A stretch of DNA of 64,000 nt from assembly GCF_030345705.1 (NCBI RefSeq), contig NZ_JAUASW010000001.1:2454301-2518300 (forward strand). The letters run 5' to 3'. Position numbers: made by a program. Within the stretch, counting starts at the first letter, position 1; every line of letters begins with the position of its first letter. The DNA comes from Pelomonas sp. SE-A7 (GTDB lineage: Bacteria > Pseudomonadota > Gammaproteobacteria > Burkholderiales > Burkholderiaceae_C). Shown piece after piece: positions 30,001 through 36,000 of the stretch.

Positions 30001-33000
30001 GGCCGCCTTTGCCGGCAACCTGCTGTCCGGCCTGGTCGGCCGGCTGTGGTTGCCGCTGGGTCCGGCGGGGTTTTTTAGCTTGCTGGCGGGGCTGGCTGGG
30101 GCGGCGGCGCTGGCCCTGGGCGGCCTGTGCTGGCGGTGGTTGCCAGTCAGCCCTTCACACAAACCACCTGCTTCAGCGTGTGTACCACGTCGACCAGGTC
30201 GGCCTGCGCGGCCATAACGGCATCGATGTCCTTGTAGGCCGCGGGCGTCTCGTCGAGCACATCCTTGTCCTTGCGGCAATCGACGCCTTCCGTGGCCGCG
30301 CGGTGGTCGGCCAGCGTAAAGCTGCGCTTGGCGTCGCCACGGCTCATGACGCGACCAGCGCCATGCGAGCAGGACTCGAACGACTCCGGATTGCCCTTGC
30401 CGCGCACGATGTAGCTGCGCGCGCCCATGCTGCCCGGGATGATGCCCAACTGGCCAGCTTTGGCGCTCACCGCTCCCTTGCGCGTGACGAAGACATCCTT
30501 CCCAAAATGCTGCTCGCGCTGCACATAGTTGTGGTGGCAGTTCACCGCCTCGATGTGGCTCTGGAAGTTCTTGCGCAGAACCGTCTTGGCCGCCTCGATG
30601 ACACGACGCATCATGACCTCGCGGTTCGTGGCAGCGAACTTCTGAGCCCAGCTCACGGCACGCACGTAGTCACCGAAGTAGCGGCTGCCTTCTTCGAAGT
30701 AGGCCAGGTCGCGGTCCGGCAGATTGGCCTGATGGCGCATCGCGTCCTGCTTGGCCAGTTCGATGAACATGGTGCCGATGGCATTGCCCACGCCGCGCGA
30801 ACCCGAGTGCAGCATGAACCAGACCGCGCCGGCTTCGTCGAGGCAGACCTCGATGAAGTGGTTGCCGCCACCCAGCGTGCCCAGGTGCTTGTGATGGTTG
30901 GTCTTCTCCAGCTTCGGGTAGCTGCGGCACAGCTCCTTGAACTCCGGCTCCAGCTGCCCCCAGGCCGTGTCCACCGAGCCTGGCGGCTTCTGCCAGGCGC
31001 CCGGGTCCCGGTTGCCAGGCACGCGGCCATGCGGCACCGCGCGTTCGATGGCCGCGCGCAGCGGGGCGAGGTTGTCGGGCAGGTCTTCGGCGCGCAGCGT
31101 GGTCTTGCAGGCGATCATGCCGCAGCCAATGTCCACGCCCACGGCCGCCGGAATGATGGCCTTGATGGTCGGGATGACCGATCCCACGGTGGCGCCGATG
31201 CCGAAGTGCACGTCCGGCATGGCCGCGATGTGCTTGAAGACGATGGGCAGGCGCGCCGCATTGGTGAGCTGGCGCTTGGCCTCGGCCTCCACCGGCACGC
31301 CACGCGTCCACATCTTCAGCGGCACGCCGCCGGGGACGTCTTCGTGAATGTGTTGAGGTTCTTTCATGATCTTGATTCCAATGTAGAGCCCCGGCCGGGC
31401 CCGATTCAAATCGAGCCCGGCCGGGGCGGTGTTCAACGCAGCTTCACGAGCCCGTTGAGCACCTGGTCCAGACCTCCGAACACGGAGATCTTGTCGATGC
31501 GCTCCGCCACGCGCTCCAGGGTTTCCAGCTCCTTGAGGCGCAGGGCGACGGGGTTGTCCTCCATCACCTTGGCGGTGTTCAGCAGCGAACGGGTCGCGGC
31601 GGTTTCCTCGCGGCGGCGGATCACGTTGGCTTCGGCCGACTTCCCGGCCTCCACCACTTGGGCGAGGATGGTCTTCATCTCGCCCGGCAGCACGATGTCC
31701 TTCACGCCGACGCTGGTGAGCTCCAGCCCGAGAGCTGCAAGCTTGTCCTTGACCTGGGCGGTCACGACCTCGTCGATGACGCTCTTGTTCTCGAGCAGCT
31801 CATCGAGCGAACGCGTGCCCACCGCAGCGCGCAGGCCGAACTGCAGCTCGCGATACAGGTGGTCGACCGGCTTGGCCAGCGCCTTGAACGCGGCCAGCAC
31901 GTCGATGAAGCGCCAGGTCGCCGAGAGGTTGAGCCGCAGCGCCACCTTGTCGCGGGTCAGGATTTCCTGACCCGTCACCTCGACCGCCTGCAGCCGCAGG
32001 TCCACCAGCTCCACGCTCACGTTGCGGTTGAACTTCCAGAACGCGAACGAACCAGGGCCCAGCAGCCGCTCGATCTTGCCGTCGACCCACAGGATGCCCG
32101 CGCCGTGTTCGGGCACGATCACCTGCAGCACGCCGGCCAGGCCGGTGATGCTGCGCGGACGCAGCTGAGTCTGCAGCAGCAGCGCAGTCAGCGCGGGCGA
32201 CAGCTCGATGGTTTCATCCAGGTCGATGACCTCGACCTGCACGTCCACCAGGCCCTTCCAATAGAGGCGCCGGGTCTCGGGCGGCAGCAGTTCGACCAGC
32301 GCGCCGTTCTCGGTACGCAGGCCGACTTGATGTGCATTCAACTCGACGCGAACGAACTCGGCCGCGACCACCTCGGGCTCCTTGACCAGCAGGTACTCGG
32401 TGAGGCGGTGCACGAAGGCCGGCGCATCCAGCGCGAACAGCTCGACCCGCAGCTCGTCAAGGCCTGCGAACAGCCAGTGCGAACCCGGTTGCAGCACACG
32501 GTCGAAATCGCCGTTGCGCAGCAGCAAGCCGCGCTCGTTCTTCTTCACATTGACACGCTTGATCGTCATGGTTTTCTCCTTGTTTGCAGCGTGTGGTTTG
32601 AATAGGGGTGCCGTTACAGCGCAGACACGGACCTCGGATGCCAAGACCTGGGTGGCGCGGTGCGTCGACGGTATGCCCTCCCAGCACACCTTCGACTGGC
32701 CGCGCACGCAGGCCTCGCGTGCCCGAGGCACGGGTGACCGCGCTGATGTCGGTTGCCCCAAAGGCATTCCGACACGTTCGGCGGGGTGGTCTTGCGACCG
32801 TTTCACTGGCTGTTCAGGCCATTGGTGGAGTGGGAGTCGAACCCACGACACACGGAATCTGAATCCGTTGCTCTACCCGACTGAGCTATCCAGTGGTGAT
32901 GAACTGGGAGTCGAACCCAAGCCCTTGCGGGACAACCGTGTTTCACCGTATCGGCCCCTTTCAGCAGGGCGGCATGCGCTGTGGCGACGGGACGAACCCG

Positions 33001-36000
33001 GCCACGGCGCACCGGTGGGGTGGAACCCCCAACCTGTGAGCCCTGCCTTCCAAGGCAGATCTGTTGGCGCCTGGCCGACCGAGCCGGTCAGTTCAAGCGC
33101 GAGTCCTTCGGCAGCCTTGCGGCCAGCCACTCATGCACGTCCGCTCGGATCCGCCTGCCCTTGAGCAGGAAGTCCTCGAAGCGGCTGGGCACGTAGGGTG
33201 TGAACAGCAGCGGCATCCTGGCTTCCTCCGGCGTGCGGTCGGCCTTGCGCGCATTGCAGGCGCGGCAGGCGGCCACCGTGTTCATCCAGCTGAGCGGGCC
33301 GCCACGCGAAGCCGGCAGGATGTGGTCGACCGTGAGGTCTCGCATATCGCGCGGCTCGCCGCAGTAGGCGCAGGTCTGGCGGTCGCGCCGGATCAACTTG
33401 AGTTTGCTGAAGCTGGGCGACACGTCGAACAGGTTCAGACGCGAGTTGCCACTGAGAGCCAGGATGGCGGGCACCTCCAGGATCGACTGATGGCCGGTGC
33501 GGACGTTCATCCCGCCACGCAGCACGGCCAGCGGCGTGTCACCGAGCGACCAGGCGATGGAGCGGGTGGCCACGTGGATGGCCGCCTGCTCGATCGAGAT
33601 CCAGGCCTGAGGCTGGCCGGTGATGTCCAGCTGCAATACGTCGTGCATGGCGTCCTCCCTTCTGTGACTGCGCACGAATCAATGTCTCTGGCAGGGGCGG
33701 CAGGGTTCGAACCTGCAAGCTGCGACTTCAAAGGCCGCTGCTCTTCCAGTTGAGCTACGCCCCAGCTGATGGCTTGTCGGGCAGCAGAGCTGCTCAACGC
33801 TGATAGTGATGACGGTTCTCGATCCCGCGACCTCCGGTTCGACAGACCGGCGCTCTTCCAACTGAGCTATGGCGACATGTTTCTCTTCTGGTCCGTGCGG
33901 CAGGACTTGAACCTGCAACCGCCTGCTCCCAAAGCAGATGCGCTACCAGTTGCGCTACACACGGGTCCTGCTCGCTGTGGCTGTCGGTGACGGGTTCCGA
34001 CGCCGCCCAATCGTTGCGGCCGGTTTCGCCGGTCGAAGCGCGAGCTCGACGACAGGCTTTGGTATGGCATCCCGTGCGGGAGTCGAACCCGCCTCTTCGG
34101 CTTGAAGGGCCGAGGACCTCACCGGAAGTCCAACGTGACAGAAATGAACGCTGGTGCCTCGTGAAGGATTCGAACCTCCGACTTCCGGCTTCGTAGACCG
34201 GCGCTCTGATCCACTGAGCTAACGAGGCGATGCAATCTCGGCTGTGTCCGCACGCGATCCGGGCAAGCGAGGCTCGCCTTGACCGCTGCATGCCGGCTCC
34301 GTCTGCAGAACGTGCGCGGCACACATGCACACCGGGCCGGCCGGTGCTTGTGCACGGGCACACCCGAAATGGCATCAATCCGATTCGCAGGCGCCAAACA
34401 AAAAGCCCGGTTCCTGCAGGAGACCGGGCTTCATGGGATCGACGGATCCCTGGAGTACGAAAGCTTCAGTAAGTTGGAGCTTTCCCCGGCGGCGTTGAGT
34501 CACCCTCATATCGGTCAAGGCGCGACTGGCCCTGTGCCAGCGGCAGCGCATGTCGACCTGCAGCGACGCACAAAGCCATCTCGCCCAAGAAGGGGCGTTT
34601 GGCGTTGGTGACGAGGGCTGGGCGAAGCATGATGAGTCCGTGTGGGTTGGGGTGAATCAACGAATGAGCGGATTGTGAAGAGTGTTCACAATCTCGTCAA
34701 CCACCTTTCACCCCTAGAATGCATGTGAAGTGTTTTAACAACACCCGCCGTGTCCAGCATCACTACCTTCCGTCGCATCAATGCCTTGTCGCTCTTCCAG
34801 ACTTTTGCGGAAGAGCGCATCACAGCAGGCGATCCTCCCAAGGGGCTGGAGTCGGCCTGGGCAACCAAGGTCGAGGTGAGCGGCGCCACCTGGTCGATGG
34901 CCAAGAGCGGGGCGCGACCGATCGGCGACAAGCTGGCGAGACAGATCGAGCAGCACTGCGGTAAGGATGCCGGGTGGCTCGATGAAGAGCGTGAGCCCGC
35001 GGGGCTATCTGCTGGGGAGCAGCAGTTCCTTGCGCTCGCGCTGAAGACCTATCGCGAGACGAATAGTGATGGGCGCAAGCGCCTGAAGCAGCTGCTGAAG
35101 GCGTTCAACACATAGGCTTCGACCGCGGCTGGAAACGAGCCCTTCGCCCCCTCGGGACATAGCAGCTGTTGCGGGAAGTCCAGCAACGGCGCAGCGGACA
35201 TCAGGTGCGGCCAGTCGCGGAGCCATCCCGCACAAGGCTCGAGGGCCAGCCAATGCGGACCAGCAGGCCGTCCGGCCCGGCAATCCCCACCTCGTAGAGG
35301 CCCCACTCGCGGTGACGCAGGACGCCGCCGGGGCGGATGATCAGGTCGTCCACGCGCGCGGCAATGGCGTCCACCTCCGGTGTGCGGATGAAGACGCCGA
35401 ACGGGTTGTGGGACTCGGGCACCCGCCAGGGACCGCTGCCCGCCTGCGTCAGGTGCACTTCGCAGCCCCAGCCGGTCATGATCAGGTAGTTGGCATCACC
35501 CCCCGTACGCTGGAAACCCAGGCGCTCCCAGAACGGCTGGGCCGCAGCCAGGTCATTGCTCGGCACGATGGCGAAGGCGCCTACGGTGACGGGGGTGGGC
35601 ATGGGGTGCTCCGGCTTGCGTTGGGTCGCCAGATTGTGCGGCGGCTAGTGCCGTCACTCACTTGCCTGCGGCAAATGAGTGACCTCCAAGCAATGCGCCC
35701 TTGTGCCGTCTCTCACTTGCCTGCGGCAAATGAGTGACGTCCAAGCAATGCAGCCTTGTGCCGTCTCTCACTTGCCTGCGGCAAATGAGTGACGTCCAAG
35801 CCCAGAAACCTGGGGCGCCCAGGGCGCCGCGCTGACTCCAACAAATAAAGTCCGTCGGAGAGGGCGCCGATAAGTGCTTGATTCTTCAGCACTGACGAGC
35901 TGGCGCAAAGTCCGTCGGGAGCTGCACGTTCGAAGCCCCTCGGGCAGTGATGACAAACAAAGTCAGTCGGAGTGCATGCTCGCGCTTCGAGGCAGCGATT

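Follow-up and report, generated by a model that had tools for sequence, protein, structure and literature searches.

Pelomonas sp. SE-A7, a member of the Burkholderiales, carries a compact cluster of tRNA genes and tRNA-like sequences beside genes for an HNH endonuclease, an SPFH/Band-7 protein and the RNA ligase RtcB. The cluster lies in a 64-kb stretch of contig NZ_JAUASW010000001.1 (positions 2,454,301 to 2,518,300), hereafter called the window, and is the location of all tRNA signal in it (minus strand, 32.8-34.2 kb). Here we describe the locus and its relatives, and in particular a structured RNA of ~470 nucleotides (nt) that contains two tRNA-like modules, lies immediately before the SPFH gene and points to an operon for RNA repair.

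Sequence data and analysis

The sequence analysed was the 64-kb window alone, whose tRNA and other RNA genes were annotated with ARAGORN and with Rfam 15 at the gathering threshold. For comparison, 80 genomic loci across the Burkholderiales were fetched with the SPFH protein as query and annotated with ARAGORN and tblastn; individual sequences are referred to below by L numbers. A covariance model, CM R1, was built on the two tRNA-like modules (module X and a cloverleaf), giving a score of 130.7 bits for the window, and covariation statistics were computed on 72 distinct sequences. Integrase domains were surveyed by Pfam scans of the open reading frames (ORFs) from 26 to 64 kb, a survey that was not exhaustive.

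Organisation of the locus

ARAGORN predicted five tRNA genes in the window, all on the minus strand between 32822 and 34228, and Rfam at gathering score returned six matches in the whole window, all of them to tRNA: the same five and a partial one at 33869-33812. An earlier note on this DNA, made from the sequence alone, had pointed out the same cluster, and the clustering is not a matter of chance. All features of the locus run on the minus strand, in the order tRNA array, HNH gene, structured RNA, SPFH/Band-7 gene and RtcB gene; the HNH gene follows the array directly and RtcB lies 1.7 kb further on.

The SPFH/Band-7 gene (32569-31433) encodes a stomatin-like protein that matches Pfam Band_7 at 4.7e-29 over residues 151-322. 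PDB stomatin chains match it at 3e-18, and its N-terminal ~120 amino acids are beta-rich where stomatin has its N-terminal region. The structural model is of low confidence (predicted local distance difference test score, pLDDT, 57.3; predicted template modelling score, pTM, 0.28), and Foldseek matches it to stomatin, HflK/C and major vault protein at template modelling (TM) scores of ~0.3; the likeness to major vault protein, in beta-rich repeats, an SPFH shoulder and a long helix, is a hint only. The protein has 7,675 database relatives, the best of them (82-92% identity) from Paucibacter, Roseateles and Pelomonas, and across the 80 loci its relatives are 74-92% identical. No SPFH homologue was found in phages by tblastn over 50,697 phage records, and a blastn comparison of the 1.7-kb region with phages gave generic tRNA matches only.

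The RtcB gene (31436-30147) matches Pfam RtcB at 8.6e-128 (match 31436-30150) and the PHROG 'tRNA splicing ligase' at 4.6e-144. Its first possible start codon, TTG at 31436-31434, overlaps the SPFH stop codon, and RtcB is found downstream of SPFH in 66 of the 80 loci. The promoter and terminator scan of 30000-34700 gave no terminator-like site on the minus strand, and a hairpin with a run of T, read directly from the sequence, stands upstream of the array at ~34427-34390. Because the scan thus shows none from the array to RtcB, and the hairpin precedes the array, the whole set is plausibly one transcription unit, probably one operon.

A structured RNA with two tRNA-like modules

The structured RNA extends from 33066 to 32607 and contains ~110 predicted pairs, distributed over the two modules and two flanking domains. 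No Rfam 15 family was found for this RNA or its parts, the sole additional match being a sub-threshold one to YrlA that is weighed below.

Module X (32947-32894; helices 1-3 of the CM R1 match) is a tRNA-like minihelix. Its acceptor-like stem of 6-7 base pairs (bp) is formed by GGUGAA at 32947-32942 and UUCAUC at 32903-32898; the first strand is followed by a linker and by a GNRA-capped hairpin, CCC-GCAA-GGG, and a canonical T arm, UUGGG-UUCGACU-CCCAG, precedes an unpaired N-C-C-A. In 73 loci the nucleotide N is A in 48, G in 15, U in 8 and C in 2, and the next two positions are C in 71 and 72 loci, respectively. Helices 1-3 are 95-98% paired, with double changes in 13 of their 14 pairs. The earlier note had seen the downstream part of this module as an unpaired, class-II-like 3' fragment; its 5' partner strand, GGUGAA, lies 40 nt upstream of that fragment, and the helix so formed covaries over the 72 distinct sequences. 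Module X has neither a D arm nor an anticodon arm and therefore does not qualify as a decoding tRNA. The third pair of the stem (12:87) was considered as a counterpart of the conserved G.U of the alanine minihelix and was ruled out, since it is not a conserved G.U. Because L033, L049 and L053 keep the cloverleaf without all or part of module X, the latter is, judged by these sequences, dispensable in some lineages.

Two nucleotides after module X begins a cloverleaf (32892-32826; helices 4-7) of the type called b7a-tRNA (for band 7-associated tRNA), which the Rfam tRNA model matches at 51.8 bits over model positions 4-67. It has an invariant D stem, a canonical T arm, a covarying anticodon stem and an acceptor stem of 4 bp, UGGA/UCCA, and this helix (helix 4) consists of four pairs in all loci; the broken acceptor stem reported earlier is thus real. 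ARAGORN labels the cloverleaf 'tRNA-Leu(CAG)' (32895-32822). Among the 73 loci, however, the 'anticodon' loop shows 43 different sequences of 3-8 nt, and in Acidovorax it is a GNRA tetraloop. In most loci with any ARAGORN call in this place a 'tRNA' is reported 240-330 nt upstream of SPFH, with an 'anticodon' that differs in nearly every locus (gat, agt, cgt, tgt, cat, aac, gaa, ctc, ctg, ttt, cgc, cga, gga, gca, gtt and cag, as well as 6- or 8-nt loops). Because this loop is hypervariable, the cloverleaf is not a tRNA-Leu; it is non-decoding. Nor is the supposed echo of the enterobacterial argX-hisR-leuT-proM cluster supported, 'CAG' being one of the 43 loop sequences. The two mimics are complementary, module X being a minihelix with NCCA whereas the cloverleaf offers a complete tRNA elbow with a 4-bp acceptor stem.

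The two modules are conserved together. CM R1 gave one match per locus in 73 of the 81 sources, at 90-144 bits and always just upstream of SPFH, including Acidovorax loci devoid of both tRNA array and HNH gene, whereas tandem true tRNAs score at most 76 bits with the same model. The eight sources below the cut-off are truncated contigs (L037, L057, L058), loci in which module X is missing in whole or part (L033, L049, L053) and lower-scoring copies (L075, L079). In the alignment, 97.8% of cells fall in standard pairs, a figure somewhat inflated by fitting the alignment to the model, and both sides have changed in 25 of the 32 pairs. The alignment has a covariation score of 0.522; shuffles give 0.144, none of the 500 reaching 0.522, and slid controls at most 0.092. 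The margin over the controls is large, and compensatory changes are already visible in the raw MAFFT alignment, before model fitting.

The flanking domains were folded with RNAalifold. Domain 1 (33066-32954, 45 loci) forms a junction of several helices, in which 24 of the 32 predicted pairs show compensatory changes, and contains the near-invariant stretches GCUCACAGG, CCGGUG and CAUGCCGC; in the window the HNH stop codon lies ~25 nt before it. Domain 4 (32799-32607, 31 loci) has 48 predicted pairs with compensatory changes in 33, and comprises a GGUC-GNAA-GACC hairpin, a GCCG/CGGC closing helix, an imperfect hairpin of ~130 nt and the invariant CUGUAACGGCACC, which stands ~40 nt before the SPFH start codon. 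The whole interval of ~520 nt between HNH and SPFH can be aligned end to end in all loci, those of Acidovorax, which lack HNH and array, included.

Several candidate signals in this interval were rejected. A sigma-54 promoter at the conserved GGCGCC...UCUGCC after the HNH stop was ruled out by wrong spacing, and one at CUGUAACGGCACC was ruled out since the GC at -12 is missing. A long-range pairing of CUGUAACGGCACC with GCUCACAGG/CCGGUG was set aside, both sides being invariant and RNAalifold pairing CGGC with the GCCG of domain 4 instead. A pattern scan of IMG/VR gave one match to domain 1 (L083), with no SPFH, RtcB, HNH or tRNA beside it, which is attributed to chance.

Accessory tRNA array and HNH gene

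The array consists of five ARAGORN genes, the 'Leu(CAG)' call among them, and one remnant within 1.4 kb, arranged in tandem on the same strand with short spacers. It begins with tRNA-Arg(ACG) at 34228-34152 (CCA encoded; Rfam 68.9 bits, full length), followed by a divergent tRNA-Glu(UUC) at 34139-34065 (41.2 bits, model positions 1-71), tRNA-Pro(UGG) at 33964-33889 (CCA encoded; 66.0 bits), a remnant of tRNA-Asp(GUC) at 33876-33819 (31.1 bits, model positions 8-63 only) and tRNA-Gln(UUG) at 33764-33689 (60.1 bits); all but the remnant are called by ARAGORN. The Arg, Pro and Gln genes had been recognised earlier as clean tRNAs, the last with its U1.U72, and they remain so. Just upstream of the first gene, at 34262-34232, lies a conserved motif (..UCGCGUGCGGACACAGCCGAGAU..) that holds a repeated UCGCGUG element and a small hairpin and is also found before tRNA-Arg in L003, L015, L018, L019, L028, L031 and L039. 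It is possibly the promoter or operator of the array, perhaps regulated.

The Glu gene, formerly taken for a selC-like 3' fragment, is a full-length tRNA by both ARAGORN and Rfam, and its acceptor stem pairs at all seven positions but one, A4.G69, a mismatch confined to the window copy. It is unusual in its anticodon loop, CCUUCAA, with C33 in place of the U33 that is near-universal in tRNAs, and further has a 4-nt variable loop, G1.U72, G73, CCA and an unusual D arm. The odd gene is kept in 11 Roseateles/Pelomonas loci, with intact acceptor stems and with C33 or G33 (the latter in the two orthologues L026 and L031), and more distant loci have an ordinary Glu(UUC) with U33. The 1:72 mismatch of the Gln gene is likewise common to all array Gln copies, 12 of 12 orthologues having a pyrimidine 1 opposite U72. 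It is speculative that the variant Glu loop and the Gln mismatch may alter recognition by toxins.

The Asp remnant, which the earlier note had correctly seen as truncated, retains the 5' part of the tRNA up to the T loop and has lost the 3' strand of the T stem and the acceptor strand. Its origin was traced by comparison with Roseateles paludis L003, where the order is Arg-Glu-Pro-Asp-spacer-Gln-HNH. Window positions 34300-33819 are colinear with L003 4006-4486, and 33818-33641 with L003 4735-4908, with ~245 bp missing from the window (L003 4487-4734). The last ~18 nt of the tRNA-Asp that is intact in L003 (4429-4504) fall in this deletion, which also took a small ORF with a SEC-C motif and most of the Asp-Gln spacer. 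The junction between 33819 and 33818 shows a microhomology of 2 nt only, 'GA'. The sequence TCATCAC, which had been noted at two of the broken copies, is indeed present at both places; its appearance as a shared junction is coincidental, the copy at the Asp junction being native spacer (GGCATCAC in L003) and the other the 3' strand of the covarying helix of module X. Since the junction has only the GA microhomology and TCATCAC is native spacer, the Asp piece is a true pseudogene created by internal deletion and not the junction of an attachment (att) site. In L003 the small ORF lies in the Asp-Gln spacer (4505-4783), starts with GTG behind a GGAGA ribosome-binding site and encodes a metal-binding motif of the SEC-C type (..DPCPCGSGKTF..).

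The HNH gene that the earlier note placed among the tRNAs occupies 33648-33088 and encodes 186 amino acids (Pfam HNH_5 1.2e-14). A Cas9/IscB-type HNH core is found at residues 78-147, after an uncharacterised N-terminal part of ~77 amino acids, and NCBIfam and PHROGs gave HNH matches only. The AlphaFold model is poor (pLDDT 53.8) and leaves the N-terminal ~80 amino acids unmodelled. An HNH gene stands at the equivalent place in 43 of the 80 loci (65-86% identity) and a tRNA array of 1-18 genes, the content of which differs even between close relatives, lies upstream in 46; the two occur together in 37. Salicola phage SCTP-2 (L082) has a full-length homologue, 41% identical over 92% of the query, within a tRNA array; nine tRNA genes that are unannotated in the GenBank record surround it at 1511-6775. 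In Ralstonia phage RsoM2USA, no tRNA lies within 5 kb of the HNH homologue. It is plausible that the HNH gene accompanies tRNA arrays as part of a mobile element, as has been proposed for the long tRNA arrays (L-arrays) of cyanobacteria (PMC8421152), and to that extent the earlier suspicion of a mobile element is supported. The array itself would be an accessory or spare tRNA set of the L-array type.

Genomic settings among relatives

The order array, HNH, tRNA-like RNA, SPFH and, after 0-2 kb, RtcB recurs in the Burkholderiales, the array being variable. A second setting is found in Acidovorax and a few others (L040, L071, L075), in which the RNA is followed by SPFH, in places a further gene, RtcB and RtcA, with a divergent rtcR upstream (Pfam RtcR 1e-80, with a sigma-54 activator domain). 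In these Acidovorax-type loci a sigma-54-like promoter, TGGCAC-N5-TGGCA, ends ~12 nt before domain 1. L064 may serve as an example, with rtcR at 3669-5294 on the minus strand and the promoter TGGCACGCATCTGGCA at 5400-5440; L040 and L056-L080 are similar. Because the RNA begins right after this promoter, it would in such loci be an operon leader independent of the array. Neither rtcR nor rtcA was found in the 64-kb window by tblastn with the Acidovorax proteins, and in the lineage of the window the array and HNH gene appear to stand in place of RtcR/sigma-54 control.

L040 combines an 18-gene tRNA array, HNH, rtcR, the RNA, SPFH, Ro60, RtcB and RtcA. Its Ro60 gene (TROVE and vWA domains; PF25045, 1.3e-19), at 7164-8756 between SPFH and RtcB, is the only one among the 10 insert genes scanned. 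In L014, L016, L031, L042 and L047 the insert is a ClpP-like serine protease gene of the SDH/NfeD type, and those of L029, L039, L061 and L067 have no Pfam match. NfeD/ClpP-like proteases are classical partners of SPFH proteins.

Further upstream on the minus strand of the window, three co-directional genes (36003-42153) encode a DEAD/SNF2-type helicase of 1053 amino acids with weak matches to DpdE and DISARM-DrmD, a protein of 598 amino acids without family, and a DUF6361 protein (6.5e-66); they may be a defence-type module beside the tRNA array. Two giant ORFs follow at 43873-62318 (minus strand; 3389 and 2485 amino acids) and belong to a Tc (ABC) toxin complex, the longer with TcA domains (TcA_TcB_BD 3.5e-93, ABC_toxin_N) and the shorter as a TcB-TcC-like fusion (SpvB, TcdB mid domains, RHS repeats and a weak Ntox10). 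Three tandem 55-nt repeats at 35645-35809, of which the second and third are 91% and 84% identical to the first, each contain the inverted repeat GTCACTCACTTGCC..GGCAAATGAGTGAC.

Interpretation

We regard the locus as an RNA-repair and spare-tRNA operon with a tRNA-like structured RNA, and not as an integration hotspot, at a probability of roughly 0.75. This reading starts from its gene content and synteny, from the structure and covariation of the RNA and from the fact that the cloverleaf does not decode. RtcB seals RNA breaks with 2',3'-cyclic-phosphate and 5'-OH ends, and RNase P recognises minihelices of acceptor and T arm that carry RCCA. The structured RNA would be made on one transcript with the repair genes, from which tRNA-processing enzymes would probably release it; tRNA-binding factors would recognise the modules shaped like tRNA, and these would bind the SPFH oligomer, RtcB or both. 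By analogy with Y RNA and Ro60, it could act as cofactor or scaffold of an SPFH-RtcB particle that reseals cleaved tRNAs, with an SPFH protein of the cage-forming stomatin class as the protein of the particle, while the array would supply replacement tRNAs as damaged ones are re-ligated. More tentatively, and at rather less than even odds, the ~470-nt RNA may represent an undescribed class of large structured RNA that serves SPFH-RtcB repair systems as their own RNA subunit or sensor. As such it could nucleate a stomatin- or vault-like cage holding tRNA halves for RtcB or, alternatively, serve as a built-in test substrate reporting damage to tRNA ends. In the lineage of the window the unit would then have come to stand behind a mobile tRNA array with HNH, and RtcR control would have been given up.

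The serious alternative, if a somewhat unlikely one, is a purely cis-acting leader whose modules are processing or sensing signals, such as RNase P or RNase Z cuts or cleavage by tRNA-damaging nucleases, for the stability or translation of the SPFH-RtcB mRNA. It overlaps with the repair-operon reading rather than excluding it. In its favour, the RNA of Acidovorax-type loci runs from the sigma-54-like promoter to ~40 nt before the SPFH start, the minus strand from 30000 to 34700 has no terminator-like site in the scan, CUGUAACGGCACC and the ~130-nt hairpin stand directly before the ribosome-binding site, and the NCCA of module X abuts the next module, a layout familiar from tandem tRNA precursors, which are processed by RNase P and 3' trimming enzymes. 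However, 470 nt with ~110 predicted pairs, GNRA loops and two tRNA mimics go far beyond what known processing signals need; the variable anticodon loop speaks against a decoy for anticodon nucleases; and the analogy with Ro60 and Y RNA, together with the Ro60 gene of L040, favours a role in a ribonucleoprotein. Another reading, an improbable one, is that the stretch from T arm to D arm is a YrlA-type Y RNA, the partner of Ro60/Rsr. YrlA accompanies RtcB operons (bioRxiv 10.1101/312249), L040 encodes Ro60 in the same operon, and Rfam gives a sub-threshold match at 32942-32846 (34 bits, E 4.6e-05). This score is half of the 69-bit gathering cut-off of YrlA (RF02553), though, and only the sequences of the T and D arms contribute to the match; what covaries is a structure of two separate modules, with no permuted tRNA domain on a Ro-binding stem, and no TROVE/Ro60 match was found among the scanned ORFs around the window locus.

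It is very improbable that the tRNA-like pieces are scars of integrase insertion or decayed paralogues of a housekeeping tRNA cluster, as the earlier note had proposed from observations that were largely real and mis-parsed in two places. The Asp-like piece is truly truncated and is a decayed copy, the guanine-plus-cytosine (GC) content falls from ~0.69 to ~0.60 upstream of the array (34-56 kb), and array content varies between relatives. But the Asp truncation is the internal 245-bp deletion with its 2-nt microhomology, without an att junction; the low-GC stretch lies on the 5' side of the array and carries the Tc-toxin and helicase genes; no tRNA 3' end is duplicated exactly, the direct repeats in 30-37 kb showing only 60-87% similarity of the tRNA type; and no integrase-type domain, tyrosine or serine recombinase, appeared in the non-exhaustive Pfam scans. 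For module X and the cloverleaf the integration-scar interpretation fails because both are syntenic and covary, with compensatory changes, in 73 of the 81 sources, array-less loci included. It is barely conceivable that the cloverleaf, for all its unusual acceptor stem, works as a tRNA-Leu(CAG) or as some other isoacceptor. ARAGORN's label, the 51.8 bits and the canonical D and T arms speak for it, whereas Rfam matches positions 4-67 only, the acceptor stem has 4 bp instead of 7 bp with a free NCCA, and the architecture is that of class I, bacterial tRNA-Leu being class II. The loop changes from orthologue to orthologue with few exceptions, its length ranging over 3-8 nt, and is a GNRA tetraloop in Acidovorax.

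Several points weigh against the repair-operon reading. Expression of the RNA, its processing, protein binding and role in repair are what we infer, the RNA might be no more than a cis-acting leader, and the model-fitted alignment overstates pairing somewhat. The core also occurs apart from HNH and arrays: HNH is missing from nine loci with an array, the array from six loci with HNH, and both from Acidovorax. The functional tie of the two to repair is therefore circumstantial. The array in the window shows decay in its truncated Asp and in the A4.G69 mismatch of Glu. In size and complexity the RNA may exceed the published description of b7a-tRNA, and in the summary available (bioRxiv 10.1101/312249) b7a-tRNA is given without experimental validation.

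The natural substrates and cofactors of bacterial RtcB are still largely unknown, and this family of loci offers a strongly covarying RNA model with exact coordinates in two natural contexts, under RtcR/sigma-54 control in Acidovorax and fused to an array and HNH in Roseateles. With isolated strains of both genera among the loci, such as R. paludis DJS-2-20 (L003) and A. radicis N35 (L065), the recruitment or regulation of an RNA-repair machine by tRNA mimics is directly testable, as is the idea that arrays of spare tRNAs act together with tRNA ligation in a single stress or anti-toxin response. For annotation, calls of the 'tRNA-Leu(CAG)' type just upstream of SPFH-RtcB are false tRNAs, and such tRNA-like 'fragments' are not to be taken for scars of integration.

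Comparison with known systems

In 2023 van den Berg et al. are said to have shown that phage tRNAs with altered anticodon loops escape host anticodon nucleases. Phage tRNA clusters resemble the locus in having tRNA genes interleaved with HNH, and the Glu gene of the window has a non-canonical loop (C33 or G33 among its orthologues), but the locus is chromosomal, with no phage genes nearby.

The rtcBA operon of the E. coli type has, to our knowledge, no structured leader. In its RtcR/sigma-54-controlled form in E. coli and Salmonella (Hughes et al. 2020, PMC7790460) it shares with the Acidovorax-type loci a divergent rtcR, a sigma-54-like promoter, rtcB and rtcA, whereas tblastn with the Acidovorax proteins gave neither rtcR nor rtcA in the 64-kb window. 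An SPFH gene (PaFlo8) is embedded in the rtc locus of P. aeruginosa (PMC13086221, 2026). The rsr-yrlBA-rtcBA operon of Salmonella (Chen et al. 2013; Wang et al. 2018) also has a tRNA-mimicking non-coding RNA in an RtcB operon, and the RNA of Ro60/Rsr and YrlA has been proposed to be a protein-tethering cofactor, as is proposed here for the RNA of the window. However, the protein partner in the window would be SPFH and not Ro60, and the RNA has two tandem modules instead of a permuted tRNA on a Ro-binding stem.

Long tRNA arrays spread horizontally, contain pseudogenes and are found in all classes of Proteobacteria (Santamaria-Gomez et al., PMC8421152). They are flanked by a conserved HNH gene that is proposed to promote their spread and are linked to rtcB, and in Anabaena the array, HNH and rtcB are co-induced by translational stress (PMC8421152). 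The window agrees with the cyanobacterial L-arrays in its presumably supernumerary tandem tRNAs on one strand, variable in content between relatives and with pseudogenes, and in the linked HNH and nearby rtcB; the UCGCGUG motif upstream of the array recalls the direct repeats that control the Anabaena L-array. It differs in size, with five genes and a remnant against up to 43 genes (its relatives reach 18), and in that the array is physically fused to the SPFH-RtcB unit; the HNH gene is likened to that of the L-arrays by type and position.

The closest description is that of the b7a-tRNA, which was predicted by Burroughs and Aravind (NAR 2016) and is known to us as summarised by Wang et al. 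(bioRxiv 10.1101/312249). According to that summary, RtcB is in some bacteria the neighbour of a Band-7 protein and of a 'band 7-associated tRNA', a predicted RNA with a strong likeness to genuine tRNA that is occasionally swapped with YrlA/Ro60. The locus likewise has RtcB in the cluster, an adjacent SPFH gene and a conserved tRNA-like non-coding RNA beside the Band-7 gene, and the Ro60 of L040 fits the swapping. Against the second-hand description, the cloverleaf is here one module of a covarying RNA of ~470 nt, which adds the NCCA minihelix and two multi-helix domains, and in the lineage of the window the rtcR/sigma-54 control region is replaced by tRNA array and HNH. The cloverleaf fits the description of b7a-tRNA as far as that second-hand account extends, and by its gene order and predicted RNA structure the locus would belong to the predicted class of SPFH-RtcB systems with a tRNA-like RNA, fused here to an HNH-bearing accessory array.

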